This document shows positions 23,394 to 53,348 of a stretch of 64,000 nucleotides of DNA, in pieces. A program made the position numbers and the translations under genes. Origin of the DNA: an uncultured Methanosarcinales archaeon (GTDB lineage Archaea; Nanobdellota; Nanobdellia; Woesearchaeales; JANQNQ01). The stretch is from contig CAZJZJ010000001.1 in NCBI GenBank assembly GCA_964550525.1, forward strand, positions 36,860 through 100,859. The letters are read 5' to 3'. Position 1 is the stretch's first letter. The number at the start of each line of letters is the position of its first letter. The notes under the pieces were generated by a model. It did no database searches, was not told the DNA's origin, and saw only the letters and a program-made list of their open reading frames with translations.

Positions 23394-23974
23394 TTAATCT
23401 CCCAATAGGTAACATCTGCTTCTTCGTCAACTACACCAATAAGAAGCCTCTTACGAGTAGAATGTGCAACCCTATTTTTAGCAGCAAACTCATACCAAGT
23501 CAGTGTCTCGCCTTCATGCACAGGGTAGATAATCCATCTTGCGTGGTCTTCACCTGGCTTAACACCTCTATCATATACCCTAAAATCTGCACCGAATTTT
23601 AAGGCTGTTTTGACAATATAGCCTCTATTTCGCATATCTTTGAAAACACAGTAACGTATCCAGAAATTTGGTTCTATTTTTCGTGCTTTTTTAATTAGTT
23701 TTTCAGGTTTTATTGGTTTGTTACGTCCGTCTAAAACCCTAATCTTCCCTTTTTCAAGCAAATAAAGGGCTTCTATAAGTGAAAGTTGAACCTTTTTATT
23801 GTCTAGGATTGCCCCAAACCTACTTTGATTATAGAGTTCTCTAGCTAAATCTGAATCCTCTGTTATCACCCGTTCTCTGGTGAATACTGTATCAATTGGT
23901 TTTGCCTTACCCATATTAGACTTCTGGAACAACCCATGTTTATTAATCTTTCTTTTTAAAACAAGCTTGACCAA
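23378..23974 (-). CDS. endA: tRNA-splicing (intron) endonuclease catalytic subunit
   Basis: The catalytic-domain signature RYCVFKDMRNRGYIVKTALKFGADFRVYDRG...H...K is present, in a 198-aa protein. Confidence 0.8.
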   Translation of the reverse strand: MVKLVLKRKINKHGLFQKSNMGKAKPIDTVFTRERVITEDSDLARELYNQSRFGAILDNKKVQLSLIEALYLLEKGKIRVLDGRNKPIKPEKLIKKARKIEPNFWIRYCVFKDMRNRGYIVKTALKFGADFRVYDRGVKPGEDHARWIIYPVHEGETLTWYEFAAKNRVAHSTRKRLLIGVVDEEADVTYWEIKWMRP

Positions 23975-24049
23975 GCAGATTTATTTTCCATATAGAAGAT
24001 AAAAAACAAAACAAAAAGCATTAAATACTTTACCCACACCCCAAAATAC

Positions 24050-24943
24050 ATGATAGAAATAATTTTCCTTGGTACATCTTGCATGCAACCAACTAAAGAA
24101 AGAAACCATTCCGGTATTTTGATTAGATTCGGCCCTGAAAATATACTTATGGATTGTGGTGAAGGTATCCAAAGGCAGCTTAAGATAGCAGGCATAAAAC
24201 CTGCAAAAATCACTAAAGTGTTAATAAGTCACTGGCACGGTGATCATGTTTTAGGTTTACCTGGACTTATCCAAACCATGGGTGCAAACGAGTATAGTAA
24301 AAAACTATTGATATACGGCCCAGAGAACTCAAAAAACTATATGCAACACATGATGAAAGCTTTTTTCTCTAAAGGCTCGATCCAATTTGAATTAAAAGAA
24401 ATTAACGAAGGTGTATTCTTTGAAAACAATACGTTCAAACTTACGTCTATGCCTCTAAAACACGGCATAAAAACAGTTGGGTTTAGTTTTATAGAGAAAG
24501 ACAGGCGTAGGATTAAGGTTAGTCATATAAAAAAACTAGGTATCCCTGATGGACCGCTATTAGGCAAGCTCCAGCGTGGACAAAAGATTAAGTGGAAAGG
24601 TAAAGAGATTAAAGCAGATGATGTAACCTATGTTGTTAAGGGTAAAAAAATAGCATATATTGCAGACACACTATCATGTAATAATGCAGTTAAACTCGCT
24701 GAAAACGCTGATTTGTTAATAAGTGAGGCTTCGTTTATAACAGAACATCTTGAAAAAGCAGAAGGCTATAAGCACCTAACTGCTAAGGATGCTGCTTTGA
24801 TAGCAAACAGTGCAGGTGCAAAGAAACTGATCCTAACCCACTTTTCTCAACGTTACAAAGAAACTAAAGACATAGAAGAGGAAGCAAAGGATTATTTTAA
24901 CGATGTTACTTGTGCTTACGACTTTATGAAAATTAAGGTGTAA
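24050..24943 (+). CDS. rnz: Ribonuclease Z (tRNA 3'-processing endonuclease, metallo-beta-lactamase fold)
   Basis: It has the HxHxDH motif (ISHWHGDHVLGLPGL) and an N-terminus IIFLGTSCMQPTKERN typical of RNase Z, in 297 aa. Confidence 0.85.
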   Translation: MIEIIFLGTSCMQPTKERNHSGILIRFGPENILMDCGEGIQRQLKIAGIKPAKITKVLISHWHGDHVLGLPGLIQTMGANEYSKKLLIYGPENSKNYMQHMMKAFFSKGSIQFELKEINEGVFFENNTFKLTSMPLKHGIKTVGFSFIEKDRRRIKVSHIKKLGIPDGPLLGKLQRGQKIKWKGKEIKADDVTYVVKGKKIAYIADTLSCNNAVKLAENADLLISEASFITEHLEKAEGYKHLTAKDAALIANSAGAKKLILTHFSQRYKETKDIEEEAKDYFNDVTCAYDFMKIKV

Positions 24944-24950
24944 TAAGATA

Positions 24951-25340
24951 ATGTCTCGTAAATCTAAGGGCATAAACGCTGAACGTGAACTAATACACTT
25001 ATTTTGGCAAACAAAGGATTGGTCTGCTTGTAGGGTAGCTGGTTCTGGTTCAATTAAATACCCTTCCCCAGATATCCTTGCAGGGAATAGGATTCGTAAG
25101 CTTGCAATAGAGTGTAAGGTGTCAAACAATAGGAGTAAGTACTTTTCTAAAGAAGAAATAGGTCAACTAAAGGGTTTTGCAAACCGGTTTGGAGCTGAAC
25201 CATGGGTTGCTATTAAATTTAGCAAGAACCAATGGTATTTTCTAAATATCGAGGATTTAAAGAAAACACCAGCCGGATATGCTCTTTCAAAAGGTATTGC
25301 GAAGAGCAAAGGCCTTATTTTTGAAGAGTTGTTGGGATAG
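24951..25340 (+). CDS. hjc: Holliday junction resolvase Hjc
   Basis: The Hjc signature reads GINAERELIHLFWQTKDWSACRVAGSG...PDILAGN...LAIECKVS, in 129 aa. Confidence 0.8.
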   Translation: MSRKSKGINAERELIHLFWQTKDWSACRVAGSGSIKYPSPDILAGNRIRKLAIECKVSNNRSKYFSKEEIGQLKGFANRFGAEPWVAIKFSKNQWYFLNIEDLKKTPAGYALSKGIAKSKGLIFEELLG

Positions 25341-25568
25341 GTGGGCGTTTGTTATCCGGAAGTAGTCATTACCTGCTTTTTAAGCGTTTCTAGCCAAAAT
25401 ACCTTTTTTCCCGCCTTTTTTAGCAAGTAAAAGGCTTTTTTTTGCTGTTTTGCCCAGTAAGAGCCGTTGTGTTTAAGAATAACCAAGAAAAAGGCCGAAA
25501 ACCGCTATTTGAAAAACGAAAGATTTATAAAGGTTACTATCTTAAATTAACACATATCTGGGGCAAAG

Positions 25569-26075
25569 ATGAAGCTTTCAAACAAGATTATTGAACAAGT
25601 AGTAAGTGAGGCTGCTGGCCAAGATGTGATTGCTTTAGTCAAATTCCTAAAAAACAGGAAGAACATTTCTGAGTTCAAGATTGCTGATGCATTGGGAGAA
25701 GAGATAAACACAGTAAGAAACATGTTGTATCGCTTACTAGATGTAAATTTGGTGAGTTTTACTAGGAAAAAGGATAAGAAGAAAGGATGGTACATCTACT
25801 ACTGGACATTTAATACAAAAAGAATAAAGTATTTGGCTGTTAGCTTAAAAAAGAGGCGGTTAGATAAACTAAAAGACAGGCTATCCAGAGAGGTTGGTGG
25901 ACATTTTTACCTCTGCCCCCAGGGCTGTATTAGGCTTGATTTTGAACAGGCGATTAACTTCGAATTCAAATGCCCAGAATGCGGTAGTTTAACCACCCAA
26001 CAGGACAATGATGCAGTTGTAGCCAATATAGAGAAAGAAATAGCAACCTTAGAAACAGAATTAAAAAAGCCCTAA
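25569..26075 (+). CDS. tfe: Transcription factor E (TFE alpha; TFIIE-alpha homolog)
   Basis: It combines an N-terminal winged helix (IADALGEEINTVRNMLYRLLDVNLV...KKKGWYIYYW) with a C-terminal zinc ribbon (CPQGC...CPECG). Confidence 0.8.
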   Translation: MKLSNKIIEQVVSEAAGQDVIALVKFLKNRKNISEFKIADALGEEINTVRNMLYRLLDVNLVSFTRKKDKKKGWYIYYWTFNTKRIKYLAVSLKKRRLDKLKDRLSREVGGHFYLCPQGCIRLDFEQAINFEFKCPECGSLTTQQDNDAVVANIEKEIATLETELKKP

Positions 26076-26221
26076 GATACCCAATTCCGATGTTTTCTTA
26101 TTTCCCCCACAAGAGTGTTTGGTTTAGATATACCTAATCTAGGGGTAATGCTCATAATACGTGCCACTATATCCTCAAAAATTTGGCAAAAAGTTGTATT
26201 ATTAAAAAACAAAAAGAAAAA

Positions 26222-26452
26222 TTATTTTCTTTTCTTGACTCTTTTTGGTTTGCTTAATCTCTTTAGGATTGCTTTTTCCTGTTTTTCTATCCTTACTTCC
26301 TCTTTAACCATTTTCAGAGCAATCTTTTCGAGATTCTCGTCAATACGTTCCATCTTTCTGTCCATCAGAACAAGTATCCTTAAGCTATAAACAATAGCGG
26401 CAAGCGTACCAATAATTATGCTAAGTGTTACCTCTTCAATTGCAAGCGTCAT
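26222..26452 (-). CDS. Small single-pass membrane protein with a basic C-terminal tail (hypothetical)
   Basis: One TM helix (LSIIIGTLAAIVYSLRILVL) is followed by a K/E-rich tail. I preferred it over the overlapping plus-strand ORF 26115..26390, which has a low-complexity composition. Confidence 0.35.
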   Translation of the reverse strand: MTLAIEEVTLSIIIGTLAAIVYSLRILVLMDRKMERIDENLEKIALKMVKEEVRIEKQEKAILKRLSKPKRVKKRK

Positions 26453-26551
26453 ACGAAAGCACCTCTTTTGTTTTGTTGAATATATTTAAAGCAATGCTTA
26501 TATATAAAGCTTTTTATTAGAAAAGAATATGCCATTAAAAACTGCGTATAT

Positions 26552-27346
26552 TTATTGTGCGCTTGACCAGGTAGAATCAAACATTTTTTTAAGTGCCGAA
26601 GAAAAATAAGGGGAATTTACCCAAACGCCCACATCATAATTTGGGTGCACGTCGCTGTCGCTTAACAACATAAAGAAGGTTTCTTTGCCATCTACAATAC
26701 ACATCCTGGCGTCGACATCTTTAACAACCCTAACATCTGTTCCCTGCTTAGTTAGTTCCCCAAGGAAGCCGGGGTCTGTTTTTGTTAAAGAGGCAATAAC
26801 CCTTGTTTTGACGCCTTTTTTTGATGCTGTGTTCAACAGCTTAGCAAACTTAGTTTTGCCAGCTACCTCCTCATTACCGATAACCAAAGAAAGATGTTTT
26901 TTAGCAGATTTAAACATAAGCCCAAGTTGATCCATAATATTACTCCTGCCCTTAATGCTGCCAACAAGCTCGTTTGGTTCAATTTGATCTTGGCCTTGCG
27001 AATGCAATAGATTGAGTTCACTCAAAAGCTTACCTTTTTTCAGTTCTTCAACAAGTCTTTCATTCTCTTTTGCTTGTTTTTCAATCTTGTTTTTTATTCT
27101 TTCTAAAACATCCACAGGAGAGACAGCAACATATTTAATAGGTTTACCTGGTTTAGTAATAATAAACCCTTTTCGTTCAAGACTTTCTAACACATCATAA
27201 CTCCTAGAACGGGGGACATTAGCAATATCTGAGAGCTCGCCAGCTGTGCTGGTTCCTCTAGACAACAAAGCAGCCCAGAGCCTACTTTCATACGTATTCA
27301 AACCAAAATCCCTTAATTTTAATAAAAACGCCTTTTCTACGACCAT
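26552..27346 (-). CDS. TrmB family transcriptional regulator
   Basis: It has an N-terminal wHTH (LRDFGLNTYESRLWAALLSRGTSTAGELSDIANVPRSRSYDVLESLERKGFI), a coiled-coil linker and a C-terminal TrmB effector-like domain. The likely start is the Met at 27346 rather than the track start at 27394. It is transcribed divergently from orc1/cdc6. Confidence 0.7.
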   Translation of the reverse strand: MVVEKAFLLKLRDFGLNTYESRLWAALLSRGTSTAGELSDIANVPRSRSYDVLESLERKGFIITKPGKPIKYVAVSPVDVLERIKNKIEKQAKENERLVEELKKGKLLSELNLLHSQGQDQIEPNELVGSIKGRSNIMDQLGLMFKSAKKHLSLVIGNEEVAGKTKFAKLLNTASKKGVKTRVIASLTKTDPGFLGELTKQGTDVRVVKDVDARMCIVDGKETFFMLLSDSDVHPNYDVGVWVNSPYFSSALKKMFDSTWSSAQ

Positions 27347-27499
27347 TGAATCACAACCAGTAGTTTTTAAGGATTTTTTGCTGAAAAAGACCAATTAGCG
27401 CCGATTCAACAAAAAACAACCAATTAAACCAGGTTAAACACATTATAAACCGGTAGTTGAACACCTATTTAAATGTTTTCTTTTTGTTGCTATTAAAGA

Positions 27500-27800
27500 G
27501 TAATTAAAGAGTCACACCTTCCAAACGAAATTTCCAGTTTATTACACGCCCTTTTGGTATCTGACACCTTTGTTTCCTTTGGAGATATCTTGTTTTGTTT
27601 TTTTGTTTTTTTGTTTTTTGTTTTCTATATAGAAAATAATAATAAAAGAAAAAAGTCGACGACAAAAAAATACAAAAAACAAAAGAAAAAACTTAAACAA
27701 CAACTAAAAACAAAGAAGAACCACAATTACACAGGAAACAAAAGGGTAGCAGACAAAAAACAAAAACTTTAAATACCTCCCTTTCGTTTGCAGATTGGAA
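27500..27800. other. oriC: Putative chromosomal replication origin (oriC): inverted ORB-like elements flanking a long T-run/A-run duplex-unwinding element, immediately upstream of orc1/cdc6
   Basis: Four ORB-like boxes are visible. At 27567-27584 the minus strand reads CTCCAAAGGAAACAAAGG. At 27734-27746 the plus strand reads GGAAACAAAAGGG. At 27776-27799 the minus strand reads TCCAATCTGCAAACGAAAGGGAGG. At 27517-27537 the plus strand reads TTCCAAACGAAATTTCCAG. A (T)n-rich stretch at 27590-27625 switches to an (A)n-rich stretch at 27640-27765. The orc1/cdc6, DP1, DP2 gene order follows downstream, as at the Pyrococcus oriC. Confidence 0.55.
27767..27776 (+). promoter_or_regulatory. TATA-box-like element (TTTAAATA) ~27 nt upstream of the orc1/cdc6 ATG, overlapping an ORB-like box
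   Basis: The sequence ctttaaatacc sits at the expected archaeal TATA distance from ATG 27802. Confidence 0.4.
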
Positions 27801-27801
27801 A

Positions 27802-29013
27802 ATGAAAACCGGGGGTTTAGTTAACTTATTTGAAAAATTCTTAGACAGACAACCGCTTTTTAGAAACAAAAGCATCCTGCAATCAGATTATGCACCAAAC
27901 AACATCATACACAGAGACCAACCAATAAAACAACTAGCAAACATACTTATGCCTTCTCTCAGATTAGATAAACCATCCAATGTTTTTGTGTATGGAAAAA
28001 CAGGGACAGGCAAAACATGTGTTGTTAATTACGTAACTGAACAGATGGTTGGTGTAGCCAATAAAAAAAACATTCCATTAAAAATCTTGTATCTGAACTG
28101 TAAATTAAAAAGAGTGGCTGACACCGAATATAGATTAATTGCGCAACTAACAAGGCAGCTTGGTAAAGAGGTTCCACCAACTGGTTTGCCTACAGATGAG
28201 ATATATAAAATCTTCTTTAAAACAATCGACTCAAAAAAACATCTTTATATTATTGTACTAGATGAAATAGACCAACTAATAAAAAAAGCAGGCGACGAGA
28301 TTCTATACAACCTGACTCGGATAAACACTGCGCTAGAGAACTCACAAGTATCTATTGTTGGTGTGTCTAATGATCTCTTTTTTACCCAAAACATTGATCC
28401 TAGAGTAAAGTCGTCTCTATCTGAAGAAGAGATTGTTTTTCGACCCTACAACGCCTTACAGCTGCAAGATATATTAAGACAACGAGTTTTGGATGCCTTT
28501 AAGGAAGGTACAGTCTCAACTGGTGTAGTAGAAAAATGTGCAGCCTATGCTGCAAGGGAGCACGGTGACGCTAGACGGGCTATAGAGCTTATGCGTGTCG
28601 CAGGGGAAATTGCAGAAAGGGAAAACAAGGAAAACGTTGATCTTGAACACATAGACAAAGCAGAAGAAAAAATTGAACGTGATAGGACCATAGACACAAT
28701 AAGTGTGCAACCCAAACAATACCAGGCAATTTTATATGGTGTGGTGTTGCTTTCAGCACAGCAAAGGAAAGAGGGAATTTCAACTGGTGAAGTTTATACA
28801 ATTTATCAAAATCTATGCACAAAGTGCGGCCTGAGACCTCTTACTCAGCGTAGAGTTACAGATATAATCGGGGAGTTTGATATGCAGGGCATAATAAATG
28901 CGAAAACTGTTTCAAAAGGAAGATATGGCAGGACAAGAGAGATTTCTTTGGCAGTGTTAGAAACAACAGTGCCGAAAATAAAGAAAATTATTGAAGCCTC
29001 GCTTAACCTTTGA
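27802..29013 (+). CDS. cdc6: Orc1/Cdc6 replication initiator
   Basis: It has an AAA+ module (Walker A YGKTGTGKTCVV, Walker B IIVLDEIDQL, sensor motifs) and a C-terminal winged helix, in 403 aa. Confidence 0.9.
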   Translation: MKTGGLVNLFEKFLDRQPLFRNKSILQSDYAPNNIIHRDQPIKQLANILMPSLRLDKPSNVFVYGKTGTGKTCVVNYVTEQMVGVANKKNIPLKILYLNCKLKRVADTEYRLIAQLTRQLGKEVPPTGLPTDEIYKIFFKTIDSKKHLYIIVLDEIDQLIKKAGDEILYNLTRINTALENSQVSIVGVSNDLFFTQNIDPRVKSSLSEEEIVFRPYNALQLQDILRQRVLDAFKEGTVSTGVVEKCAAYAAREHGDARRAIELMRVAGEIAERENKENVDLEHIDKAEEKIERDRTIDTISVQPKQYQAILYGVVLLSAQQRKEGISTGEVYTIYQNLCTKCGLRPLTQRRVTDIIGEFDMQGIINAKTVSKGRYGRTREISLAVLETTVPKIKKIIEASLNL

Positions 29014-29028
29014 TCAGAACTTCTGCAT

Positions 29029-30657
29029 GTGTATGTATATAAAATGTTGGATTTAAAAACAGAGCAAAAAAGGAAAGAAATAATCAGGTTTTTCATCAAG
29101 AATAACCTGTTAATTAGTCAGGATTTTCTTGATGACTTAAGCGAGGCAGATATCTTGGAATCTAATCAGGGGTTGTTAGATTTAGCAAAACAAAAAGATG
29201 CTCTGGTTTTAGACAAAGCCCTAAGAAGTAACTTTAGTAAGAATTCTGGTGCCGGGGTTTGTTGGAGAGAGCTTGAAAAATCAAAAACATACAAAGATCT
29301 TGGAAGAGATAACAAATCATATAGCCATTTTGTTGATTATTTGCTTGAACATCAAGATACACAGGCAGTTCATGGTGACATAGAAAATATTGAGCAAAAC
29401 AAGAAGGTCCAAATTATCTCCTCTTACGAAGGAAAAAGTAGGAAAATTGGTGTGCAAGATTTTGTTCAACATTTAAACCTTAGATATAGGTTTTTAGAGG
29501 GGGTCCTTTCAAAAAGACAAGAACTAACAAATATTCTTTCTGTCTCGCGCGTTTTACAAAAAAAAGAAAGAGAAACAGTTTCAATAATTGGCGTGGTAGA
29601 AAGTATGCAATATACTAAAAACAACAACATCATTTTGAACCTAGAAGACCCCACAGGTAAGATTAAGGTATTGGTCAACCAAAATAAACCAGAACTATTT
29701 GAACAAGCGCAAACAATTGTGCCTGATGAGGTTATAGCTGTTATAGGGGTAAATGGCGATAATATCGTCTTTTCTAACAATATTCTTTGGCCAGAGGTAC
29801 CCTTAAATCGTGAACTTAAGAAGTCACCTGAAGAAGAATATGCCTTGTTTTTATCAGATCTGCATATTGGGTCAAACAATTTCTTACCCAGGGAATTTGA
29901 TAAGTTTATTAGCTGGATGAACCAGACGGTTGGCAATGAAACACAAAGAGAAATATCTAAAAAAGTAAAATACGTCTTTATTGTTGGAGATCTTGTTGAT
30001 GGTGTTGGCATTTATCCTGGGCAAGAAGAAGAGCTTGTTATTAACGATGTTAAACAGCAGTACGCAGAATGTGCGAGATATCTAAAACAGATTCCCTCAG
30101 ATGTTGCGATTATCATCTGCCCTGGCAACCATGATGCGCAAAGAATATCAGAACCACAGCCGGCGTTAAGAAAAGAGTTTGTAGAACCTTTGTTAGAATT
30201 ACCGAACGTTACTCTTGTAAGCAACCCAGCCTATGTTTGTATAGGAAAAACAGAAGATTTCTCTGGTTTTGTTGTTTTGTTGTATCATGGTTTTTCATTT
30301 GACTATTATGTTGCAAATGTGGATTATATCAGGGCACATGGTGGTTATGATCGAGCAGACGTTATCATGAAATTTCTTTTACGAAAAAGGCACCTTGCAC
30401 CTACACACACGTCTAGTTTATATCAACCAGACCTTACATCAGATAATCTTGTGATCACTCAGATTCCCGATTTTTTTGTCACAGGACATATACATAAGTC
30501 CGTTATTTCACACTACCGTAATATCACTTTAATCTCTGGCTCATGTTGGCAAAGTAAAACATCTTTCCAACAAAAAGTAGGGCATAACCCTGAGCCCGCA
30601 AGAGTTCCTTTAGTAAACCTACAAACAAGAGAAGCCAAAATATTACGGTTCGGTTAA
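29029..30657 (+). CDS. polB: DNA polymerase II (PolD) small subunit DP1 (calcineurin-like phosphoesterase/exonuclease)
   Basis: The MPP-fold motifs are present: LFLSDLHIGSN, FIVGDLVDGVG, ICPGNHDA and GHIHK. It lies immediately downstream of cdc6. Confidence 0.85.
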   Translation: MYVYKMLDLKTEQKRKEIIRFFIKNNLLISQDFLDDLSEADILESNQGLLDLAKQKDALVLDKALRSNFSKNSGAGVCWRELEKSKTYKDLGRDNKSYSHFVDYLLEHQDTQAVHGDIENIEQNKKVQIISSYEGKSRKIGVQDFVQHLNLRYRFLEGVLSKRQELTNILSVSRVLQKKERETVSIIGVVESMQYTKNNNIILNLEDPTGKIKVLVNQNKPELFEQAQTIVPDEVIAVIGVNGDNIVFSNNILWPEVPLNRELKKSPEEEYALFLSDLHIGSNNFLPREFDKFISWMNQTVGNETQREISKKVKYVFIVGDLVDGVGIYPGQEEELVINDVKQQYAECARYLKQIPSDVAIIICPGNHDAQRISEPQPALRKEFVEPLLELPNVTLVSNPAYVCIGKTEDFSGFVVLLYHGFSFDYYVANVDYIRAHGGYDRADVIMKFLLRKRHLAPTHTSSLYQPDLTSDNLVITQIPDFFVTGHIHKSVISHYRNITLISGSCWQSKTSFQQKVGHNPEPARVPLVNLQTREAKILRFG

Positions 30658-30663
30658 GAGAAG

Positions 30664-33600
30664 ATGGCAGCAGAATCAAAAAAACTTAGCAATTATTTCT
30701 TATCCTTAGATGCAGAACTAAAAAAAGCATATAAAATTGCGTCTGCAGCAAGAAAAAAAGGCCTAGACCCTGAAGACAAAGTTGATGTACCTCTTGCTAG
30801 GAACATGGCACAAAGAGTTGAGGGTCTTGTTTCAGATATGATCCCACAACTAGTCAACACAGGTATGACTAAACGCATAGGCGAACTGGAAAAAGCGTAT
30901 AGCAAACTAGATTGGAGAGTTGCACTCAAAATTGCAGAAGAGGTAGCTAAAGGTAAATTCTGTAAATTTAAAGATAAAAAAGAAGCCATGGAAGCAGGTA
31001 TAAGAACCGGTTTCTCTTACATGACTCAAGGCATAGTGTCTGCACCGCTTGAAGGTTTTATTGGTCTTGAAATAAAAAAACGTAGAGATAGTAAGGGGCA
31101 GTACCTATCAGCTTGTTATGCTGGTCCAATAAGGGGTGCAGGTGGAACAGGTGCAGCATTTTCTATTGTACTAACTGATTATATCCGTTCAGTTATGGGC
31201 TATAGTAGGTATGATCCTTCTGAGCATGAAATAAAAAGGTTTGTTTCCGAGATCTACGACTATCATGAACGTGTAACAAACCTACAATACCTACCAACAC
31301 CAGAAGAAATAGAATTCCTAAGTCAAAAACTTCCTGTTGAAGTGAGTGGAGATCCGACAGAAGAGATTGAAGTTTCAAACTATAAGGATCTGCCTAGGGT
31401 TAAAACCAACCGGATTCGTGGGGGCATGTGTCTTGTAATGGCAGAAGGGCTTGCACAGAAAGCACCAAAATTATGGAAACGGTTGGTCAAATGGGGCAAA
31501 GAATATGGTTTAGATTGGTCATTTTTAGAGGCTTTCTTGATTTTACAAAAAAAGATTAAAGCAAAAAGTGATAAAACAGTGGAAGGAGAAACTAAGATAA
31601 CTCCGAACTATACTTTTATTAAAGACATTGTTGCGGGTAGGCCTGTATTAACACACCCTATGGCCCTTGGCGGGTTTAGGTTAAGGTATGGCCGTAATAG
31701 GTTATCTGGTTTTTCTGCTGCCTCAATCCATCCAAATACAATGAGGGTATTAAACAGCTATATTGCTACAGGCACACAATTAAAAATTGAAAGGCCAGGA
31801 AAAGGAGCAGCACTTACTCCATGCGATACAATAGAACCGCCTATAGTCAAATTAAATGATGGTAGCGTCATTAAATTAGATTCAGAACAAAAGCTTAGAG
31901 ACAACAAAAAAAAGATTAAAGAGATTTTATTCCTAGGAGATATCTTATTTAATTATGGAGATTTTTCAGAGAATGGGCAACGGCTTGCCCCTGCAGGGTA
32001 TTGTAAGGAATGGTGGGTTCAGGAGCTGGAAAAGTCAATAGTAACCACCTTTGGCAGCCTTGACCTAGAAAAAACATCAGGGTTTGCTGGGGTGGAAACA
32101 AAAGTTGTTCAAGACGTAATAGACCACCCATTAACCCACAACATTGGATCTAAGCAGGCTTTTGCGATCTCTACTAAGATGGGTTTGCCATTACACCCCT
32201 TACACACATACTACTGGAACTCTATACAAATAAAACAACTGGGTTCTTTATTAAACTGGTTTAGTAAAGCAAATCTGGTTGATGAGAAAGCCACCAATAT
32301 AAAACTGATCTTGCCCTTGGATAGAGAGCCTAAGCGCATACTTGAGCTTGTAGGAGTCCCGCATTTAGTGGTTTCTTCAGAATATATTGTTATTCTAGGG
32401 GAGGCCCTAATGTCTTTATTATTCAATCTCGGTTTTGAATCTGGGATTGCGGTTAAAGCTGCGATTGAAAAAGTTGCAAAACTAGATGGTAACCAGAAAA
32501 CCATTAATGCAATTAATCTGTTGGCAAATGTAAAGGTCAATGATCTATGTGGAACTTTTGTTGGGGCCAGAATGGGTAGACCTGAAAAAGCAAAAATGCG
32601 GAAACTTACAGGCAACCCGCAGGTTCTTTTCCCTGTTGGTGATCAAGGAGGTAGACTAAGGAGTTTTCAAGCAGCGATGGAAACAGGCAAGATCAAAGCA
32701 GATTTTCCGCTTTTTCGTTGTGATAAATGCAATAAGGATACAATATACAAAACATGTGAACATTGTGGGAAGAAAGCAAAACCAAAATTTTTCTGCCCAA
32801 TATGTGGGATAATTGACTCTGAAACCTGCCCCAAACATGGTAAAACAAAAACGCACGCCAGACAAGAGATAGATATTAAATATTATTTCAATTCTGCATT
32901 AGGTAAATTAGGTATGAATACCTATCCAGATTTAATAAAGGGTGTGAGGGGTACATCAAATAAGGACCATATCCCGGAAAACCTAACAAAAGGCATACTG
33001 CGTGCAAAACATAGTGTGTACGTGAACAAAGACGGTACAACAAGGTATGATATGTCAGAATTACCAATAACTCATTTCAAACCAAAAGAGATTGGTACAC
33101 CTTTAGATAGGTTAAAACAACTTGGTTATACTCACGATATTAATAATAAACCACTTATTGACGTAGAGCAGATTCTTGAGATCTTCCCTCAGGATGTAAT
33201 TCTTCCATCAGGTACACAGACCACAGATGAATCTGCAGATGTGGTTTTGTTGCGTGTTGCAGCGTTATAGATGAGTTACTTGTAAAGCATTATAATCTAC
33301 AGCCATATTATGGGATAAAAAATAAGTCTGATCTTGTTGGACAAGTTATACTTGGTCTAGCACCACATATCTCTGCAGCAACTGTTGGAAGGATAATTGG
33401 TTTTTCAGAAACACAAGGCTGTTTTGCACACCCCCTTTGGCATGCAGCCTTAAGAAGAGACTGTGATGGCGACGAGTGCAGTGTGATTTTGTTAATGGAT
33501 ACTTTACTTAATTTTTCTAGACAATACTTACCTGATAAACGTGGTGGGAGGACAATGGACAGCCCATTGGTACTAACTTCCAAGGTTGTGCCATCCGAAG

Positions 33601-34214
33601 TAGATGACCAGGTTCTTGGTTTAGATGTAACTTGGAAATATTCTTTGGATTTTTACCAAGCCACATTAAACAAAAAGTTTCCATGGGAGATAAAGGTCGA
33701 ACAACTTAATTCAAGAGTTGATACAGAAAAACAGTACGAGAAGATTGGTTTTACCCACGATACTAGCAATGTAAACTCAGGCATTAATTGTTCAGCATAT
33801 AAGACTTTACCAAGTATGAGAGAAAAACTCGAAGGGCAGATGGAGATAGCAACAAGAATTCGAGCCGTTGACGAAAAAGATGTAGCCAGGTTGGTTATAG
33901 AAAAACATTTTCTAAGAGATATTAAAGGCAACCTACGGAAGTTTTCTCAGCAGAAGTTTCGTTGTGTAAAATGTAATGAAAAGTATCGTAGACCACCACT
34001 TATTGGAAAATGTACTGCTTGTGGCGGTAAGATTATTTTTACTATCTCAAAAGGCTCTATTGAGAAGTACCTCGGACCAAGTATTGAGCTTGCTGAAAAA
34101 TTTGATCTGCCACCTTACCTTAAACAAACGTTAGAGCTTACTAAAACCAGGATAGAAGGGGTATTTGGTAAGGAAAAGGAAGTGCAAAGCGGTTTAGGTG
34201 CGTGGTGTGGTTAG
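30664..34214 (+). CDS. polC: DNA polymerase II (PolD) large subunit DP2, encoded in two frames and interrupted by an apparent -1 frameshift at ~33265-33270 (868-aa N-part in frame 1; C-part continues in the -1 frame)
   Basis: The N-part (30664..33270) has DP2-like sequence throughout and ends ...DVVLLRVAAL*. The -1 frame is open from 33231 and reads SVIDELLVKHYNLQPYYGIKNKSDLVGQVILGLAPHISAATVGRIIGFSETQGCFAHPLWHAALRRDCDGDECSVILLMD, which is the conserved DP2 catalytic segment with the Asp triad motif. A single-base slip at TTA|TAG restores an uninterrupted ~1183-aa DP2 of normal length. Confidence 0.85.
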
Positions 34215-34220
34215 TGGGTT

Positions 34221-34493
34221 TTAATATCTAATCTCAAAACAAGAGAATTCTTTTTTGTATTCTTGTTTTTTAGTACTTATACCATCTACCATTGCATGTT
34301 CTGGACCGTGTTCACAGAATTTAATTAGTTTTCGTAATTTGTCCTCTGATCCTTCTGCAACAACCTCAACTTTGCCATCCATTGTATTTTTAACAAAACC
34401 ATGAAGTCCTAATTTCTTAGCAATCTTGTCTACATTATATCTAAAAAATACTCCTTGTACTTTACCAGAAATAAGTAGGTGTACTCGTTTCAT
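34221..34493 (-). CDS. acyP: Acylphosphatase
   Basis: The acylphosphatase signature ISGKVQGVFFR is followed by GFVKNTMDGKVEVVAEG, in 90 aa. Confidence 0.8.
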   Translation of the reverse strand: MKRVHLLISGKVQGVFFRYNVDKIAKKLGLHGFVKNTMDGKVEVVAEGSEDKLRKLIKFCEHGPEHAMVDGISTKKQEYKKEFSCFEIRY

Positions 34494-34507
34494 TTTCTGT
34501 TTTTAAT

Positions 34508-34810
34508 TTAACTTTCTTTGACAATAACAATCTGGATGTGCGGTATACCTGCGATCTTTATTACTCTATCTTTATCAACCAAACCTCGTTTTTCGCAAAA
34601 AGCAACACTCTCTTTTCCAACAACATTTAATGCATTTGCATTTTTGATTATTTCTTCTAATTCTGCTTCAGTGGTTTTTTCTCCATTATAAAAAGAAGAC
34701 GTAAGGTCTAACTGCAGTTTACCTTTTTCAAACTTTTTACCCAAAAGATCATCATCGCAGATAGCAATAATGATTTTACCTTCAATGCTTTTATGTCTTT
34801 TAGCAATCAA
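34508..34810 (-). CDS. Conserved small archaeal protein (DUF424/COG2412-like), function unknown
   Basis: This 100-aa protein has the pattern IIIAICDDDLLGKKF typical of a small conserved archaeal family. The family name is from memory and not certain. Confidence 0.35.
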   Translation of the reverse strand: MIAKRHKSIEGKIIIAICDDDLLGKKFEKGKLQLDLTSSFYNGEKTTEAELEEIIKNANALNVVGKESVAFCEKRGLVDKDRVIKIAGIPHIQIVIVKES

Positions 34811-34825
34811 TGTGTATCCCGGGTT

Positions 34826-35236
34826 TTAGATTTTAGATTTTAAGCTGTGTCTAGCACCACAAGCATGACATTTAATAAATGTAAGATTACTCTCTTTAAT
34901 AATTTTAGTATCAGGTTTTCCGCATTCTGGACACAGGACATATTGTCTTGCATACAATCTAATCTTATCGTTTATCTTTGACGCTGATACTTTAGTACCA
35001 ATAATCACGCTACCACTCTTTTTTATTTCGCCAGGTGCAGCAAGCTCTTTTAGAATAAACTTTAACATATGCTCTGCTGGTCTGCGTAGTTTCGTAGCTA
35101 TTTGTAAAAAGTTGCTCAATATGGTTCTGTTTCCTTGGAGATGTCCCATTACTTTAGGTATTTCAAACCTTTCAGAAGTGAATACTGCTTTTGGGAGATT
35201 CTTCCTTCCATCTTCTAACATCTTCTTATAATCCAT
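34826..35236 (-). CDS. eif2b: Translation initiation factor 2 beta subunit (aIF2-beta)
   Basis: It has the eIF2-beta/eIF5 domain and a C-terminal C4 zinc ribbon (CPECGKPDT...CHACGA), in 136 aa. Confidence 0.8.
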   Translation of the reverse strand: MDYKKMLEDGRKNLPKAVFTSERFEIPKVMGHLQGNRTILSNFLQIATKLRRPAEHMLKFILKELAAPGEIKKSGSVIIGTKVSASKINDKIRLYARQYVLCPECGKPDTKIIKESNLTFIKCHACGARHSLKSKI

Positions 35237-35333
35237 TTTAGTGAGTGTAATTTTAGAAGGTATTTAAACTCTTCGTTTTTTAATATTGTCTTTTTCAAAA
35301 AGTATTTAAATACAGAAACCCAGAATCAGGTAT

Positions 35334-36185
35334 ATGGTATTAGAATCATTACTAAATCCGGTCAAAGCAGAGAAAAGACCATGGGATGCTTTTTTCTTAG
35401 GTTTGCTATACTCAACTATTGCCATATTCCTATCGTTGTGGGTATTTCCTGACCAAGCTAGTTTAATTTCAGTTTTTCTTATAGTATTAGGAAGTGTACC
35501 ATTGGTCTTGGGAACAATTAGGTTAGAAGAAAAGAAAGATCTGGTGATAGAAAGCGAAAGAGCTATATTAAAAGAACATAGTAAAGCACTATTTTTCTTA
35601 ATTATCTTGTTTCTCGGATTTACAGTTGCATTTGCGTTCTGGTATACGGTTTTGCCTCAGAAAACAGTTAGTCTAGTATATAGTGTACAAGAGCGTACTA
35701 TCCTTAGTATAAACAATCGTGTCTCAGGACAACCAGTGTTTCTTTTTAATTCGTTTACTGCTATACTTATGAATAATCTCAGGGTACTTACATTTTGCGT
35801 GTTGTTTGCCTTTTTGTATGGGGTTGGTGCAATATTTATTCTAACATGGAATGCGTCTGTGGTGGGTGCAGCTATAGGTAACTTTATTCGCACTAAATTA
35901 AGCTATTACACTCAGAGTGTAGGCGCTTTATCCTTAGGGCACTATTTCCAAGCAACTACCCTAGGTTTGTTACGTTATATAGTGCATGGTTTGCCTGAGA
36001 TGCTAGCTTATTTTGTAGGTGGCTTAGCAGGAGGAATAATTTCCATTGCAATAATTAGACATGATTTTAGAACAAGGAAGTTTGAAAAAATACTTTTTGA
36101 TTCATCTGAGTTAGTATTGTTGGCAATCGTTATCCTTGTAATTGCTGCAACAATCGAAGTATATGTTACACCTCTTTTATTCTAG
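35334..36185 (+). CDS. DUF95/SpoIIM-like polytopic membrane protein
   Basis: About 6 TM helices are predicted, with an N-terminal RPWDAFFLGLLYSTIAIFLS pattern typical of SpoIIM-family membrane proteins. Confidence 0.5.
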   Translation: MVLESLLNPVKAEKRPWDAFFLGLLYSTIAIFLSLWVFPDQASLISVFLIVLGSVPLVLGTIRLEEKKDLVIESERAILKEHSKALFFLIILFLGFTVAFAFWYTVLPQKTVSLVYSVQERTILSINNRVSGQPVFLFNSFTAILMNNLRVLTFCVLFAFLYGVGAIFILTWNASVVGAAIGNFIRTKLSYYTQSVGALSLGHYFQATTLGLLRYIVHGLPEMLAYFVGGLAGGIISIAIIRHDFRTRKFEKILFDSSELVLLAIVILVIAATIEVYVTPLLF

Positions 36186-36881
36186 AATCTTTACTCTACC
36201 TGGGCGTATTGTAAACAGGTCTCCTCGTTTCAAGAGCATATCCAATACTTCTTCAGAATTAGTAACATCGCTCCCCTTCTTAACCTCTTCAATATCAGCA
36301 CCATCCCCTGAATCAAGTTCTTTAATAGTCTGAATTACCTTTTCAATACTAGTTGTTTCAACCTTCTCATTAGTATCATCTGTAATTATTTCCTCTTTTG
36401 AAGCATCTAACAGGGCATTGTCCTGATGTTGTACATTAATCTCTTCTTGGTTTATTCTCGGGAGTTTACTATATATCTTCATGTGCTCAAGCTTTCTTAC
36501 TTCAATCCATTTTTTATCTTTTATCTGTTTTATTATCTCCGGTACAATATACTTCTCTGAACCATACTCTCTTGGTCTACCAATAACCGCGATCATATCT
36601 CCTATTTGTAATATGCTTAACATCTTATTCTCTTCAAAAGATCTTAACCCAATTTTACCAGAACCATCATCAATTATTACTGTTTCCTGTTTACCAGCTT
36701 CACCTGTTTGTATTTTCTCTAAAACAACGCCCACTAAATTAACTCTAGAAACTCTTAGATTGTATGGTGTAATAACATAATTTGGTTTCCACCCATCTTC
36801 AACAACATAGTTGCCTTCAAGCAAATCCTTAATCTTAATCTTATAAGCAGTTTGTCTTTTATTATTCTCTGGCATAGTCAT
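36177..36881 (-). CDS. OB-fold protein with a C-terminal winged helix, RPA32-like ssDNA-binding candidate; immediately downstream of mcm on the same strand (6-nt spacer)
   Basis: The N-terminal ~120 aa has an OB-fold-like beta pattern (LVGVVLEKIQTGEAG..VIIDDGSGKIGLRSFEE..IGDMIAVIGRPREYG). An acidic linker follows, then a C-terminal wH-like segment EEVLDMLLKRGDLFTIRPGRVKIL. The architecture matches RPA2/RPA32. This call is inference. Confidence 0.4.
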   Translation of the reverse strand: MTMPENNKRQTAYKIKIKDLLEGNYVVEDGWKPNYVITPYNLRVSRVNLVGVVLEKIQTGEAGKQETVIIDDGSGKIGLRSFEENKMLSILQIGDMIAVIGRPREYGSEKYIVPEIIKQIKDKKWIEVRKLEHMKIYSKLPRINQEEINVQHQDNALLDASKEEIITDDTNEKVETTSIEKVIQTIKELDSGDGADIEEVKKGSDVTNSEEVLDMLLKRGDLFTIRPGRVKILE

Positions 36882-36887
36882 TCCCTC

Positions 36888-38906
36888 TCAAATCCTTTGT
36901 ACAAACCCTGATTTTGGTTCGAATATATCACCGCTTCTTTTTAATTTTTCTATTGCATCTTCAACCTTGTCTTCTTCAATGCCTCTTTCACCTGCTTCCT
37001 TTAATATGTCGTCTATTGGGATGGTTTTACCTATCTTGTTTTCTAAATCGGCTATTATGTCTTTGACAACAATAATCTTACTACGTTGTGATGCAGGGAT
37101 CCCTGTAGATATCTTATCTATGTCAATCTTACCTGTCTCCATATCAGTTGCAACCTGGGCCAAACAAAAATTTAACAACTCAGTCGCCCTTTTAGCATCT
37201 TTCTTACCTACTTTCTTAGCTAACCTTAATTTAGCAGTACCCTCAGCTAACCTGATCAATGCTTCAAGTTGCCTTGGTGATATAGGTACAGATTTAATCC
37301 CACCCTCTTCACTACCTGAAGCCCTCATCTTTAGATAATAATTCTTAATCTCTTCAATTGCGCCATCTGTTAGTACAGGGAAACAAGTCTGCCTAGCATA
37401 AGCAACGTATTTCTTGAGTAAGGTTGTATCAATATCAGGATGTATGTCTTCTGGCTTTTGGTGTAATAATAGTATATGTTTAGCCATACGCTCATCTTTT
37501 TTCTCGTCAGGCAAATCTTTTACAGGAAATATTAAATCAAACCTATTAATCAAAGCTGGCGGCAGGTTTATTTGTTTAGCAATTATGTCGTATGGGTCAA
37601 ACCTGCCAAACTTAGGGTTAGCAGCAGCCAGTACAGTAGTCTCACATCTTAATGTTGCTTGAATATTTGCTTTACTTATGCTAACTGTCTGTTGTTCAAG
37701 TGCTTCATGCATTGCAGCTCTATCTTCTGGGGTCATCTTATCCATCTCATCAATACATACTAGCCCCCTGTTTGCAAGAACTAATGCACCTGCTTCCAGA
37801 GCCCATCCTTTCAAAAACTCGTCTTTAACAACTGCAGCAGTCAAACCTGCGCCACTTACACCTTTACCACTAACATACCTTGCTTTTGGTGCAACCGTTG
37901 ATGCCCTTTTCAACAACTGAGATTTACCTGCACCAGGATCTCCTATTAATAGAACATGCATATCCCCCCTAGTAATCATGCCATCTGGACGTTCCTTTTT
38001 CACACCACCAACTAACTGAAGCAACAATGCTTCTTTTACTTTACCATAACCAAATATAGATGGCGCAACAGATTTAATAAGCTTAGAATATACCTTTGGG
38101 TCGTTTGATAATTTTCTTATTTGTTCTACCTCTTTTTCATTAATCTCCAATTCTAGATAATCTTCTTGCATGGTCTCAACATGGTTTGCTTCAACTAATA
38201 GGTCAAACCTAGTAGACTGAACTCCGCTGTGAAGAGTGATAGGCACTTCTTTGATTATTCCACTTACCTGGATTCTGCTTCCCGGATTGGTTTTTTTATC
38301 AGAAATAGGGCTGACTAGGTCCTCTTTAAGAAATATGTTCATTCTTTTAGGCTGTTCACCGCCTTCAAGATCCTCTGGTGATTCTTCAAGCACTATACCT
38401 TGTACATCTATTAGCTCTTTTCCTATCAATCTAAATTTGCCTTTTCTACCGCAACCACATGTAGCTGGTTCTTTAAACTTTTTATCTACTTGCAAAACAG
38501 AGATAATATTTCCGCAACTTGGGCATTCAAATCTTGCAGATGTAACTTGAGGGCGTACATCAGATTTTTGTCTAACTACTCCCTCTAAAACAAGAAATTT
38601 GTTGATATGTTCACTTCTAATATTCCTAACCATTATCTTTTGTGATTCTGGTAGGTTTGAAACCCTAATCTTAACATCTTTAGCAGCTTTAGGCAGGTCA
38701 AATTGTTCAATTGCTAGTTCTGCAGCTTTGATTAGATCCTCTGGTTGGTCTAGCATTAGATCAGCTAGTTTTGGGTTGAACTTTGATAACTCTGTAAAAT
38801 CTATAACTAGGTAATAAAGAGATTTTCTGAGATTCTTTTGTAGAATAGCTAAATAATTGGTTTCTATAAATTCTTGGAATAGTTTTATTTGTTCGGCTGT
38901 ATTCAT
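36888..38906 (-). CDS. mcm: MCM replicative helicase
   Basis: It has an N-terminal Zn-finger region (CPSCGN...CGCG), Walker A LLIGDPGAGKSQLL, Walker B CIDEMDKM, an arginine finger and a C-terminal wH. The probable start is MNTAEQ at 38906, with a TATA-like tatttaaact ~25 nt upstream. The track ORF extends to 38984 through ORB-like repeats. Confidence 0.9.
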   Translation of the reverse strand: MNTAEQIKLFQEFIETNYLAILQKNLRKSLYYLVIDFTELSKFNPKLADLMLDQPEDLIKAAELAIEQFDLPKAAKDVKIRVSNLPESQKIMVRNIRSEHINKFLVLEGVVRQKSDVRPQVTSARFECPSCGNIISVLQVDKKFKEPATCGCGRKGKFRLIGKELIDVQGIVLEESPEDLEGGEQPKRMNIFLKEDLVSPISDKKTNPGSRIQVSGIIKEVPITLHSGVQSTRFDLLVEANHVETMQEDYLELEINEKEVEQIRKLSNDPKVYSKLIKSVAPSIFGYGKVKEALLLQLVGGVKKERPDGMITRGDMHVLLIGDPGAGKSQLLKRASTVAPKARYVSGKGVSGAGLTAAVVKDEFLKGWALEAGALVLANRGLVCIDEMDKMTPEDRAAMHEALEQQTVSISKANIQATLRCETTVLAAANPKFGRFDPYDIIAKQINLPPALINRFDLIFPVKDLPDEKKDERMAKHILLLHQKPEDIHPDIDTTLLKKYVAYARQTCFPVLTDGAIEEIKNYYLKMRASGSEEGGIKSVPISPRQLEALIRLAEGTAKLRLAKKVGKKDAKRATELLNFCLAQVATDMETGKIDIDKISTGIPASQRSKIIVVKDIIADLENKIGKTIPIDDILKEAGERGIEEDKVEDAIEKLKRSGDIFEPKSGFVQRI

Positions 38907-38949
38907 ATTATTAACACTTCTTTTATAGTTTAAATACCTCACGCGTACA

Positions 38950-39052
38950 CATGTCCAGTGTCCAGTGGCTCCCCCAAACGCCAAAAAACAGATAGCTCAA
39001 GCTATAATAACGCAGTTTTCCACTGGACACCCTGCTTTGTCCAGTGGCTCTA
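38950..39052. repeat. Cluster of ORB-like TCCAGTGG dyad elements between TBP (stop 39058) and the mcm promoter
   Basis: 38954-38975 reads TCCAGTGTCCAGTGGCTCCCCC. At 39015-39030 the minus strand reads GTGTCCAGTGGAAAAC, which matches the ORB core TCCAGTGGAAAC. 39040-39050 reads GTCCAGTGGCTC. All are read directly from the sequence. Confidence 0.5.
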
Positions 39053-39600: not shown

Positions 39601-39951
39601 AATATCGCCCCCATAAGCGTTTTATTTATAAGGGTTTAAAAAGCAAGCTTATTTATAAATACTTTGGTTTTTAAATGAAACCATTCTAAACTAAATGATG
39701 CATTTGGTATGCCCCTTTGATTTCATTTGTAATATTTCTGGTATTAAGCCTTAAAATAGCTGTTTTTGCCTGTTTCAGAAAGTGTTCAAGATGTAACGCC
39801 CCTGGTTTTCCATTGGAAAAACAAGCACCTCAGGCCCTTAAGCAATAAGTTACAAAAATGGTTGCTGCAAAATACATATTCCAAAACAATGGTATGCCTA
39901 TATAATATAACCACAAAATTTAAATATTCTACCTTAACTATCGTTAAGTTC

Positions 39952-40317
39952 ATGAAATTAATGCCACAAGAGATTGAGGTTTGGTATATCCTGCCTGCTA
40001 TTAGGAAAGAGATTGCCATTGAAATGAAAAAGCTTGGCTTGAAACAGAATGAAATAGCTCAAAAGCTTGGTCTGACAGAAGCTGCAGTTAGCCAATACCT
40101 TAAAGGTAAACGCGGTAATGATGTTGATCTGGATAAAGAGATCAAAACCAGGATAAAAGAGATCACAAAAAAACTGATTAAAGACCAGACCTGTTTAATT
40201 AAAGAAATAAACGAGTTATGCAAAAGGGCAAAAAAATGTTTGTTGTTGTGTAAAGTACACAGGAAGCATGATCATGGGCTTTCAAAGGACTGTAGCGCTT
40301 GTTTAGAACAATACTAG
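39952..40317 (+). CDS. Small HTH (XRE-like) transcriptional regulator with a C-terminal Cys/His-rich putative metal or Fe-S binding tail
   Basis: The likely start is MKLMPQE at 39952, with a TATA-like tttaaata at 39919-39926. The HTH reads NEIAQKLGLTEAAVSQYLKGKRG. The tail reads QTC..ELC..KKC..LLC..HRKHDH..DCSAC. The 3' end overlaps the iscS start. Confidence 0.5.
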   Translation: MKLMPQEIEVWYILPAIRKEIAIEMKKLGLKQNEIAQKLGLTEAAVSQYLKGKRGNDVDLDKEIKTRIKEITKKLIKDQTCLIKEINELCKRAKKCLLLCKVHRKHDHGLSKDCSACLEQY

Positions 40318-41465
40318 GTGATAATATGGAAGTATATCTTGATAATGGAGCAACCACAAGAGTGGATCCAGAAGTAGTTAAAGAAATGCAACCCTTTTTT
40401 TCAGATAAATATGGCAATGCATCTTCTCTGCACAAGTTTGGTAGAGAAGCTAAAGAGGCACTTGAGAATGCACGCGAAACAATAGCTATTTCGATTGGTG
40501 CAGAACCAAAAGAGATTATATTTACATCTGGAGGTACAGAATCAGATAACATGGCTCTACGCGGTGCAATATTCTGTGGCGAAAGAAAAGGTAAAAACAT
40601 AATTACAACCAAGATTGAACACCCAGCTATACTTAATACGTGCAAATGCCTTGAACAACAGGGAGTAAAGGTACATTATCTTGATGTAGATAAAAATGGT
40701 GTAGTGGATCTAGAACAAGTAAAAAAGCTTATTGACAAAAACACCCTACTTGTTTCAATCATGCATGCTAATAATGAGGTTGGTACAATCCAACCAATCA
40801 AGCAAGCGGCAAAGATAGCTCATGACAATGGTACTTTGTTTCATACAGACGCAGTGCAAAGTTTTACTAAAACAAAGTTTGATGTAAAGGAACTAGGTGT
40901 AGATTATGCAAGTTTTTCTGGGCACAAAATCCATGGACCTAAAGGCGTAGGTTTCCTTTACAAAAGTAAAAAAGCTCCACTCTGCCCAATGGTATATGGC
41001 GGTGGGCACGAGTTTAGTTTAAGAGCAGGTACAGAGAATGTCCCAGCAATAGTGGGCTTAGCAAAAGCAGTAAGCCTAGATACCAAATCTGATTACATCA
41101 GAAAACTTAGAGATAGATTGATTAAAGGTCTTGAGACAATACCTGATGTGAAGCTTAATGGACCAAGAAAACAGCGTCTAGTCAATAATGTCAACATGTC
41201 GTTTGCTTTTGTTGAAGGCGAAGCAATGTTGTTGCACTTAGATGAAAAAGGCATAGCTGTTTCAACAGGTTCAGCATGTTCTTCACATAGCTTAAAACCA
41301 AGCCATGTTTTGGAAGCTATAGGTGTACCCCCTGATATGATGCATGGTTCATTACGTTTTACATTATCTAGATTTAATACAGAGAAGGAGATTGACTATA
41401 CAATTAAATCTGTAAAAGAAGTAGTAGAAAAACTTAGAAAAATTAGCCCGTTTGGCAAAAGGTGA
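40299..41465 (+). CDS. iscS: Cysteine desulfurase (IscS/NifS, class V aminotransferase)
   Basis: It has the PLP-lysine region FSGHKIHGPKGVGFLY and the catalytic Cys loop STGSACSS. The probable true start is MEVYLDNGATT at ~40326. Confidence 0.85.
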   Translation: MFRTILGDNMEVYLDNGATTRVDPEVVKEMQPFFSDKYGNASSLHKFGREAKEALENARETIAISIGAEPKEIIFTSGGTESDNMALRGAIFCGERKGKNIITTKIEHPAILNTCKCLEQQGVKVHYLDVDKNGVVDLEQVKKLIDKNTLLVSIMHANNEVGTIQPIKQAAKIAHDNGTLFHTDAVQSFTKTKFDVKELGVDYASFSGHKIHGPKGVGFLYKSKKAPLCPMVYGGGHEFSLRAGTENVPAIVGLAKAVSLDTKSDYIRKLRDRLIKGLETIPDVKLNGPRKQRLVNNVNMSFAFVEGEAMLLHLDEKGIAVSTGSACSSHSLKPSHVLEAIGVPPDMMHGSLRFTLSRFNTEKEIDYTIKSVKEVVEKLRKISPFGKR

Positions 41466-41959
41466 TAACTATGTATTCAAAAAAGGTAATGGAACATTTC
41501 CGGAACCCACACAATCAAGGTAAAATCAAAGATGCAGACGGTATAGGTAAGGTTGGCAATATTAGTTGTGGAGATGTAATGTGGATCTACATCAAGGTAA
41601 AGGATGATGTTATTGTAGACATTAAATTCTCAACCTTTGGTTGCGCAGCTGCAATAGCTACAAGTTCAATGATAACAGATTTGGTTAAAGGCAAAACCGT
41701 CAAAGAAGCACTTAAGATAACTAACAAAGATGTAGCAGATTCTTTGGATGGGTTACCTCCAATAAAAATTCACTGTTCAACACTTGCAGAAGAAGGTCTT
41801 AATGAAGCTATCTATGATTACTTAACTAAAAACAAACTACCTATTCCTAAAAGTGTTGAAGAGAAACACAAAAGAATACAGGCAGAACTTGAAAAAATAA
41901 AAGAGAAATACAAGGATTTCAAAGAATTTGAAGAAGAGTTAATGAAAAACAGCAAATGA
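41462..41959 (+). CDS. iscU: Fe-S cluster scaffold protein IscU/NifU-like
   Basis: It carries the three conserved Cys (ISCGDV, FSTFGCAAAIATSS, IHCSTLAEEGL). Confidence 0.85.
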   Translation: MITMYSKKVMEHFRNPHNQGKIKDADGIGKVGNISCGDVMWIYIKVKDDVIVDIKFSTFGCAAAIATSSMITDLVKGKTVKEALKITNKDVADSLDGLPPIKIHCSTLAEEGLNEAIYDYLTKNKLPIPKSVEEKHKRIQAELEKIKEKYKDFKEFEEELMKNSK

Positions 41960-53345: not shown

Positions 53346-53348
53346 AAA

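Follow-up and report, generated by a model that had tools for sequence, protein, structure and literature searches.

A PolD large-subunit (DP2) gene of an uncultured, Woesearchaeota-like DPANN archaeon is interrupted by one missing T, most likely through assembly error or a recent private mutation rather than programmed recoding

The stretch of DNA analysed here (the window, 64 kb in length) is tightly packed, with 93% of its sequence coding and a G+C content of 35.8%, and the whole of it contains no tRNA genes and no Rfam families above threshold. A replication and information-processing island at 23378-38984 includes genes for a tRNA-splicing endonuclease, a metallo-beta-lactamase-fold protein, the Hjc resolvase, TFE-alpha, Orc1/Cdc6, the small (DP1) and large (DP2) subunits of PolD, an acylphosphatase, a DUF424 protein, eIF-2 beta, a SpoIIM-like protein, and MCM (36888-38984, minus strand). 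The Orc1/Cdc6 initiator (27802-29013, plus strand; Pfam Cdc6_C, Cdc6_lid, and AAA) is the first gene of a cdc6-DP1-DP2 cluster, and an identical protein is encoded on L081, one of the same-population contigs described below. The DP1 gene follows (29029-30657, plus strand; Pfam Metallophos, DNA_pol_E_B, and OB fold); its likely start is the ATG at 29044, and the resulting 537-aa product is identical on contigs L081, L090, and L091. The DP1 gene stops 6 nt before DP2 begins, which places the DP2 gene directly beside its partner subunit. The AT-rich intergenic region upstream of orc1/cdc6 (27395-27801) contains long T-rich tracts (27590-27624, TTGTTTTGTTTTTTTGTTTTTTTGTTTTTTGTTTT) that face inverted A-rich copies at 27644-27770, and this region is probably a replication origin with an unwinding element and initiator-binding repeats.

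Several other gene groups were noted in the window. A tandem TldD/PmbA metallopeptidase pair occupies 12276-14896, and an ORF at 14893-15963 separates it from two adjacent ORFs (15977-18699) with weak similarity to M29 aminopeptidases. A sulfur-relay and tRNA-modification cluster at 40299-44221 comprises an IscS-like cysteine desulfurase (with an apparent TTG start), NifU/IscU, a 277-aa ThiI-like THUMP protein, a PP-loop ATPase, and RNase P p30; if the preceding HTH gene (39766-40317) is included, the genes up to RNase P p30 meet at six junctions, four of which have 4-nt start/stop overlaps. The remainder of the window (44296-64000) is taken up by four consecutive, very large ORFs on the same strand (1601, 1390, 2790, and >500 aa). 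The first has only a sub-threshold PKD match, the second no Pfam match, the third a CarboxypepD_reg domain and Ig-like repeats, and the fourth a signal-peptide-like start (MKKKRLILFFVLILLASIPVYS); the four ORFs probably encode giant surface proteins of the kind that is typical of DPANN archaea.

The DP2 gene is present on the plus strand in two pieces. Part 1 (30664-33270, frame 1) has 868 codons, and its translation ends with DVVLLRVAAL in front of a premature TAG at 33268-33270. An open stretch of the -1 frame begins at 33231, after a TGA at 33228-33230, runs to a stop at 34212-34214 and reads ICRCGFVACCSVIDELLVKHYNLQPYYG...GLAPHISAA...RRDCDGDE... (also given as SVIDELLVKHYNLQPYYG), giving a 40-nt overlap of the two frames (33231-33270). 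ORF calling and translation confirmed both of these features of the initial annotation. Part 2 (33267-34214, -1 frame) contributes 315 codons, from IDELL to GAWCG and the stop, and carries GLAPHISA, RRDCDGDE, and the C-terminal Zn finger. The N-terminal, central, and catalytic domains of DP2 are all present in order. PolC_DP2_N, PolC_DP2_central, and positions 6-100 of the 299 in PolC_DP2_cat match the N fragment, and positions 106-299 match the C fragment (1.3e-86 for PF03833 and 1.4e-114 for PF24844, with PF24846 split 6-100 / 106-299 over the two frames). The 868-aa fragment does not include the catalytic RRDCDGDE motif. In the -1 frame no ATG, GTG, or TTG occurs between 33231 and 33483, the first canonical start (33483) lies downstream of RRDCDGDE, and the ATG directly 3' of the TAG is out of frame and encodes MSYL before the next stop. 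Judged from these reading frames, neither ORF as deposited would encode an active polymerase. Addition of one base yields a DP2 of 1183 aa in which the catalytic residues R931-E938 (RRDCDGDE) are invariant and which aligns over the junction with no gap to 119 homologues, to a 30-sequence alignment (A1), and to residues 827-979 of 6KNB_B, the solved T. kodakarensis DP2 chain. The earlier estimate that a single nucleotide separates the locus from an intact protein of ~1183 aa is thus borne out by both homologues and structures.

Conserved residues (L862, R-V-A, F868, and D870) flank the break on both sides, Phe868 having a conservation of at least 90% and D870 being invariant. Because of these flanking residues, the frame change is placed inside the single codon 33265-33267 and not elsewhere in the 40-nt overlap; the interval 33231-33270 originally assigned to the event was correct and is now narrowed to this codon. 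The gap-free junction alignment, the codons of 61 relatives, and the end of scaffold L086 at 33265 all bear on this point. The sole T-rich stretch of the overlap, G GTT TTG (33243-33249), was ruled out as the shift site because the conserved LxRVA motif would be destroyed, and its run of four Ts (33245-33248) was rejected as a slip site on the same grounds. Among the matches listed, the junction residue in the 61 related loci is Phe (57), Tyr (3), or Leu (1, L026). The junction codons of the relatives are TTT or TTC for Phe followed by ATH or GTN, mostly TTT and then ATT or ATA, and the window has TTA in place of the Phe codon and reads GCG TT ATA GAT. When TTT is put back, the sequence becomes RVAAFIDELL with the conserved Phe; a ribosomal slip gives Leu. 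The initial annotation had joined the frames by a slip between TTA and TAG to give RVAAL-IDELL, a solution that places Leu where 57 of the 61 relatives among the matches listed have Phe, and a dropped T is simpler. The codons are read most simply as a change of GCG TTT ATA to GCG TT ATA, in which a Phe codon that hardly varies among relatives would have dropped one T (or C). What had been TTT (or TTC) in front of ATA would then be left as TT-ATA, the triplets TTA TAG would arise, and the last 315 codons would fall into the -1 frame. We refer to the sequence with two Ts as the T2 allele (GCGTTATAG) and to those with the base restored as T3 forms (GCGTTTATAG or GCGTTCATAG).

The two-frame layout is confined to this assembly. 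We compared the gene with 80 related DP2 loci from species-representative genomes, among the matches listed, and with the 119 top homologous proteins. A single open DP2 frame of at least 1107 codons was present in all 80 loci, and the two-frame layout was found in none of these loci and in none of the proteins. Conservation in related genomes had been set beforehand as a test, and the two-frame structure was not conserved. The 868-aa protein identical to part 1 (P0001) and the product of the 239-aa C-terminal ORF (P0268) are both singletons, each from a single 111,378-bp NCBI contig, and a separately called C-terminal DP2 ORF occurs in no other assembly. The 868-aa product had no exact match in the contig index, JGI metagenome contigs gave 0 matches when scanned with exact or degenerate DNA patterns that span the site or lie just past it, and queries of 160 and 490 aa over the junction retrieved no near-identical protein fragments among matches of ~0.65-1.75x the query length (fragments of ~278-320 aa fall outside this range). 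The nearest other DP2 proteins, from Woesearchaeota/Nanoarchaeota (DPANN), show 59-64% identity and are made in one piece of ~1155-1216 aa, or ~1650 aa with an intein; above 64% identity there are only the same-population contigs, and the site is crossed by none of them. We considered an intein, or the scar of one, and rejected it, as there is no extra sequence at 868/869; the inteins of the relatives are located between RRD and CDGDE (933/934), 65 codons downstream of the break. Among 147 DP2 fragments from short contigs, termini were not enriched at residue 868. Other frameshifted DP2 genes with out-of-frame tails were found, namely P0146 and P0143 (on one 21,298-bp ENA contig) and P0128 (on a 465,255-bp NCBI contig). 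These resemble the window gene in being out-of-frame-tailed ORFs on contigs long enough for a whole DP2, but they are broken at other positions. DP2 breaks are thus scattered over public assemblies, as expected of errors or private mutations, and do not mark a conserved site.

The portion of the gene past the break retains the character of a functional DP2. Its 315 codons contain no further stop, every invariant column of alignment A1 is kept, and the ratio of C-terminal to N-terminal identity is 1.199, compared to 1.208 +/- 0.024 in 29 intact homologues. Neither relaxed constraint nor further disabling mutations were found downstream of the lesion, and the gene does not have the features of a decaying pseudogene. 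The lack of decay leaves an artefact, a very recent lesion, or one that is somehow decoded.

Decoding by programmed -1 ribosomal frameshifting, as raised in the initial annotation, would use GCG UUA UAG as a "shifty stop": with the stop codon waiting in the A site, tRNA-Leu would slip back one base to give full-length DP2 with Leu-Ile at the junction, possibly along with a truncated 868-aa product. The short overlap, the A-site stop codon, and the perfectly conserved downstream frame are consistent with such an event; Leu at the junction would probably be tolerated, as L026 has Leu there, and -1 frameshifting is known in archaea from fucA1 of S. solfataricus (PMC8211752). We applied the criteria of that archaeal recoding review, a slippery heptamer and a structure 5-9 nt downstream (PMC8211752), and the signals were absent. 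No X XXY YYZ heptamer occurs in the zero-frame overlap codons (GAA TCT GCA GAT GTG GTT TTG TTG CGT GTT GCA GCG TTA TAG). The conserved residues confine any shift to GCG TTA TAG, and re-pairing fails there, a P-site tRNA-Leu that slips from UUA to GUU being mismatched at the first and third codon positions. A stimulatory structure 3' of the site, which the initial annotation had proposed to look for, was not supported, as the 100 nt 3' of the stop fold with -18.3 kcal/mol, which is not significant (z = -0.64; 49 of 200 shuffles were at least as stable). The review gives fucA1 as the experimentally shown cellular case and names no PolD example (PMC8211752), and a literature search for PolD/DP2 frameshifting returned nothing relevant. 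The absence of the layout from the 80 loci among the matches listed and from the 119 proteins also argues against frameshifting, and it is implausible that a replicase would depend on inefficient slippage where the sequence is not slippery. We consider programmed frameshifting very unlikely. Transcriptional slippage requires a long A or T homopolymer, of ~7-9 nt or more, and the run at the site is TT.

A natural split was weighed against the same region. DP2 would here be made as polypeptides 1-868 and 869-1183 that assemble, the second arising by termination-reinitiation or from a non-canonical start such as AUA 33267, which overlaps the stop (UUAUAG). Large archaeal enzymes can be split, as in RNAP A'/A'' and B'/B''. 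A split gene should have its own start codon at the split, however, and the first ATG, GTG, or TTG of the frame is at 33483, past the catalytic motif; there is no promoter-like site near the junction, the ATG after the TAG is out of frame, and none of the relatives compared is split at this position. We give this arrangement almost no credence. The broader proposition that T2 really exists and has become fixed in a thriving DPANN population (at least eight samples), with DP2 made by a non-slippery shifty stop or as a reinitiated two-piece protein, is highly improbable. If true, it would be the first recoded archaeal replicative polymerase.

The quality of the assembly was assessed from the rest of the window. 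The other ~47 genes are intact, including the ORFs of 1601, 1390, and 2790 aa, and the coding homopolymers (489 of at least 5 nt, 72 of at least 7 nt) are all evidently of the right length. No other adjacent ORF pair in the 64-kb window has the appearance of a broken gene. Three pairs were examined as possible indel breaks and rejected: 15977-17749 / 17716-18699 are two separate M29-like genes, 39766-40317 / 40299-41465 are the HTH protein and IscS, and 41956-42789 / 42786-43640 are the THUMP protein and a complete PP-loop protein. The window is not a homopolymer-noisy long-read assembly. The clean window and a lesion in a run of only three make the prior for a random error somewhat lower, yet they indicate no biological mechanism. 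The initial annotation had suggested an assembly or homopolymer indel error; we favour assembly error, and the homopolymer part is only weakly apt for a change of T3 to T2 when 489 longer coding runs are intact. A repeat within the window as the cause of a graph break was also rejected, there being no shared k-mers of at least 14 nt near the site.

Independent assemblies of the same population were located in ENA, JGI, and Logan by exact-protein look-ups of the neighbouring genes and by blastn, and contigs 99.99-100% identical to the window were recovered from at least eight other samples. To the left of the site these cover window positions 25839-32101 (L081), 27867-32075 (L090), and 27867-31126 (L091). 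To the right, L082 and L085 run from 34078 rightwards (L082 to 45236), and L083, L087, and L084 cover 34118-35733, 34126-36114, and 34304-35545, respectively. Scaffold L086 (ENA ERZ23499057) covers 37552-34118, then 10 N, and then 34095-33265. Positions 32102-33264 are represented in none of the same-population contigs (L081-L091) and only in the source assembly. The second piece of L086 is identical to the window except for one mismatch (34083) and, on the plus strand, starts TTATAGATGAG; it stops precisely at 33265, where the first T of the site lies. By a rough estimate over about a dozen ends, the chance that a contig ends on exactly this base is ~1%. An end just 3' of 33264 fits a graph in which two bases precede TTATAG, namely G (T2) and T (T3), or a SNP at 33264. 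The L086 end makes the site a discontinuity in an independent assembly, one that is compatible with either allele.

The remaining contig ends indicate heterogeneity of the population. They cluster at 27867, 32075/32101, and 34078-34126, and these clusters, together with 33265, suggest that strain-level variation is concentrated in the 3' 60% of DP2. Contigs L088 (SUTE22-1) and L089 (SCRA20-1) are identical to the window right of 33962 and, left of 33947, switch to one shared, divergent, and mostly synonymous DP2 sequence; the switch (33931-33962) suggests a second lineage or a recombination boundary within DP2. The end clusters and the L088/L089 divergence indicate that co-occurring lineages differ within DP2.

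We conclude that the DP2 break consists of one missing T and that its most likely source is an error in assembly or a private mutation that arose recently, as opposed to programmed recoding. Between the first two, a consensus or assembly artefact is the probable cause, a real deletion ranks next, and recoding comes last. The gene would be an ordinary, functional-looking DP2 for which the deposited consensus is short of one base, an error introduced where the graph of a strain-diverse population may branch or dead-end; the organism's real DP2 gene would probably be intact, and there would be no special decoding of the break. The contig ends count in favour of an artefact, as the L086 end at 33265 is what a branch just 5' of TTATAG would give. 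Counted against it are the rarity of a random indel error in an otherwise clean window and the fact that a real T2/T3 polymorphism, or a SNP at 33264, could explain the end at 33265 just as well. We infer the artefact, with somewhat better than even confidence, and did not see it, because no second assembly crosses the DP2 site.

A real, recent one-base deletion, in the sampled genome or in part of the population, is possible although the less probable cause. The defective DP2 allele would not yet have decayed and could be maintained at minority frequency or by hitchhiking; alternatively, it might be tolerated if PolB, or co-occurring cells with a second, intact allele, sustained the lineage. 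The absence of other indel-type breaks in the assembly means that the base call may be right, a branch at precisely 33265 in the graph of an independent sample is in keeping with a T2/T3 polymorphism, DP2 is visibly heterogeneous within the population (L088/L089 diverge left of 33947, and contig ends cluster), and the intact downstream frame is compatible with such a mutation provided that it is recent. Against a deletion, PolD is essential in archaea where tested, and a null allele, whose product before the stop lacks RRDCDGDE, should not be the majority consensus. Moreover, no second copy of DP2 is present within the 64-kb window, and no other assembly has the separately called C-terminal ORF.

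With either an artefact or a private mutation, the significance is limited to annotation: the 868-aa and 239-aa ORFs belong together in a single entry marked as a frameshifted DP2, and surveys of DPANN replication genes should not score them as a truncated or split polymerase. If T2 were real and fixed, for which we see very little chance, recoding in an essential archaeal replicase with no canonical signals would be remarkable.

Compared to known systems, the window gene is closest to the archaeal PolD DP2 proteins (PolC/PolD; PF03833, PF24844, PF24846; structures 5IJL, 6HMS, 6T8H, and 6KNB), with which it shares all three domains, RRDCDGDE, and the C-terminal Zn-finger cysteines; it differs in lacking one base at codon 868, which breaks its frame, all relatives examined being single-frame. 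The fucA1 gene (alpha-L-fucosidase) of Saccharolobus (Sulfolobus) solfataricus is the one cellular case of -1 frameshifting in Archaea that has been shown by experiment (PMC1616953, PMC8211752). The two genes are alike in their 40-nt ORF overlap, in the downstream ORF being in the -1 frame, and in the full-length, active-looking protein obtained by a one-base insertion. In contrast to the window DP2, which lacks slippery sequence, structure, and conservation, fucA1 has an A-AAA-AAT slippery heptamer, flanking rare codons, a putative stem-loop, and recurrence in a second strain. Bacterial dnaX (DNA polymerase III tau/gamma) likewise encodes a subunit of a replicase and involves a change to the -1 frame. 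There, an A AAA AAG sequence, an upstream SD-like element, and a downstream hairpin direct a shift that gives the shorter product; these signals are absent from the window DP2, in which it is standard decoding that leads to a truncated, catalytically dead product.
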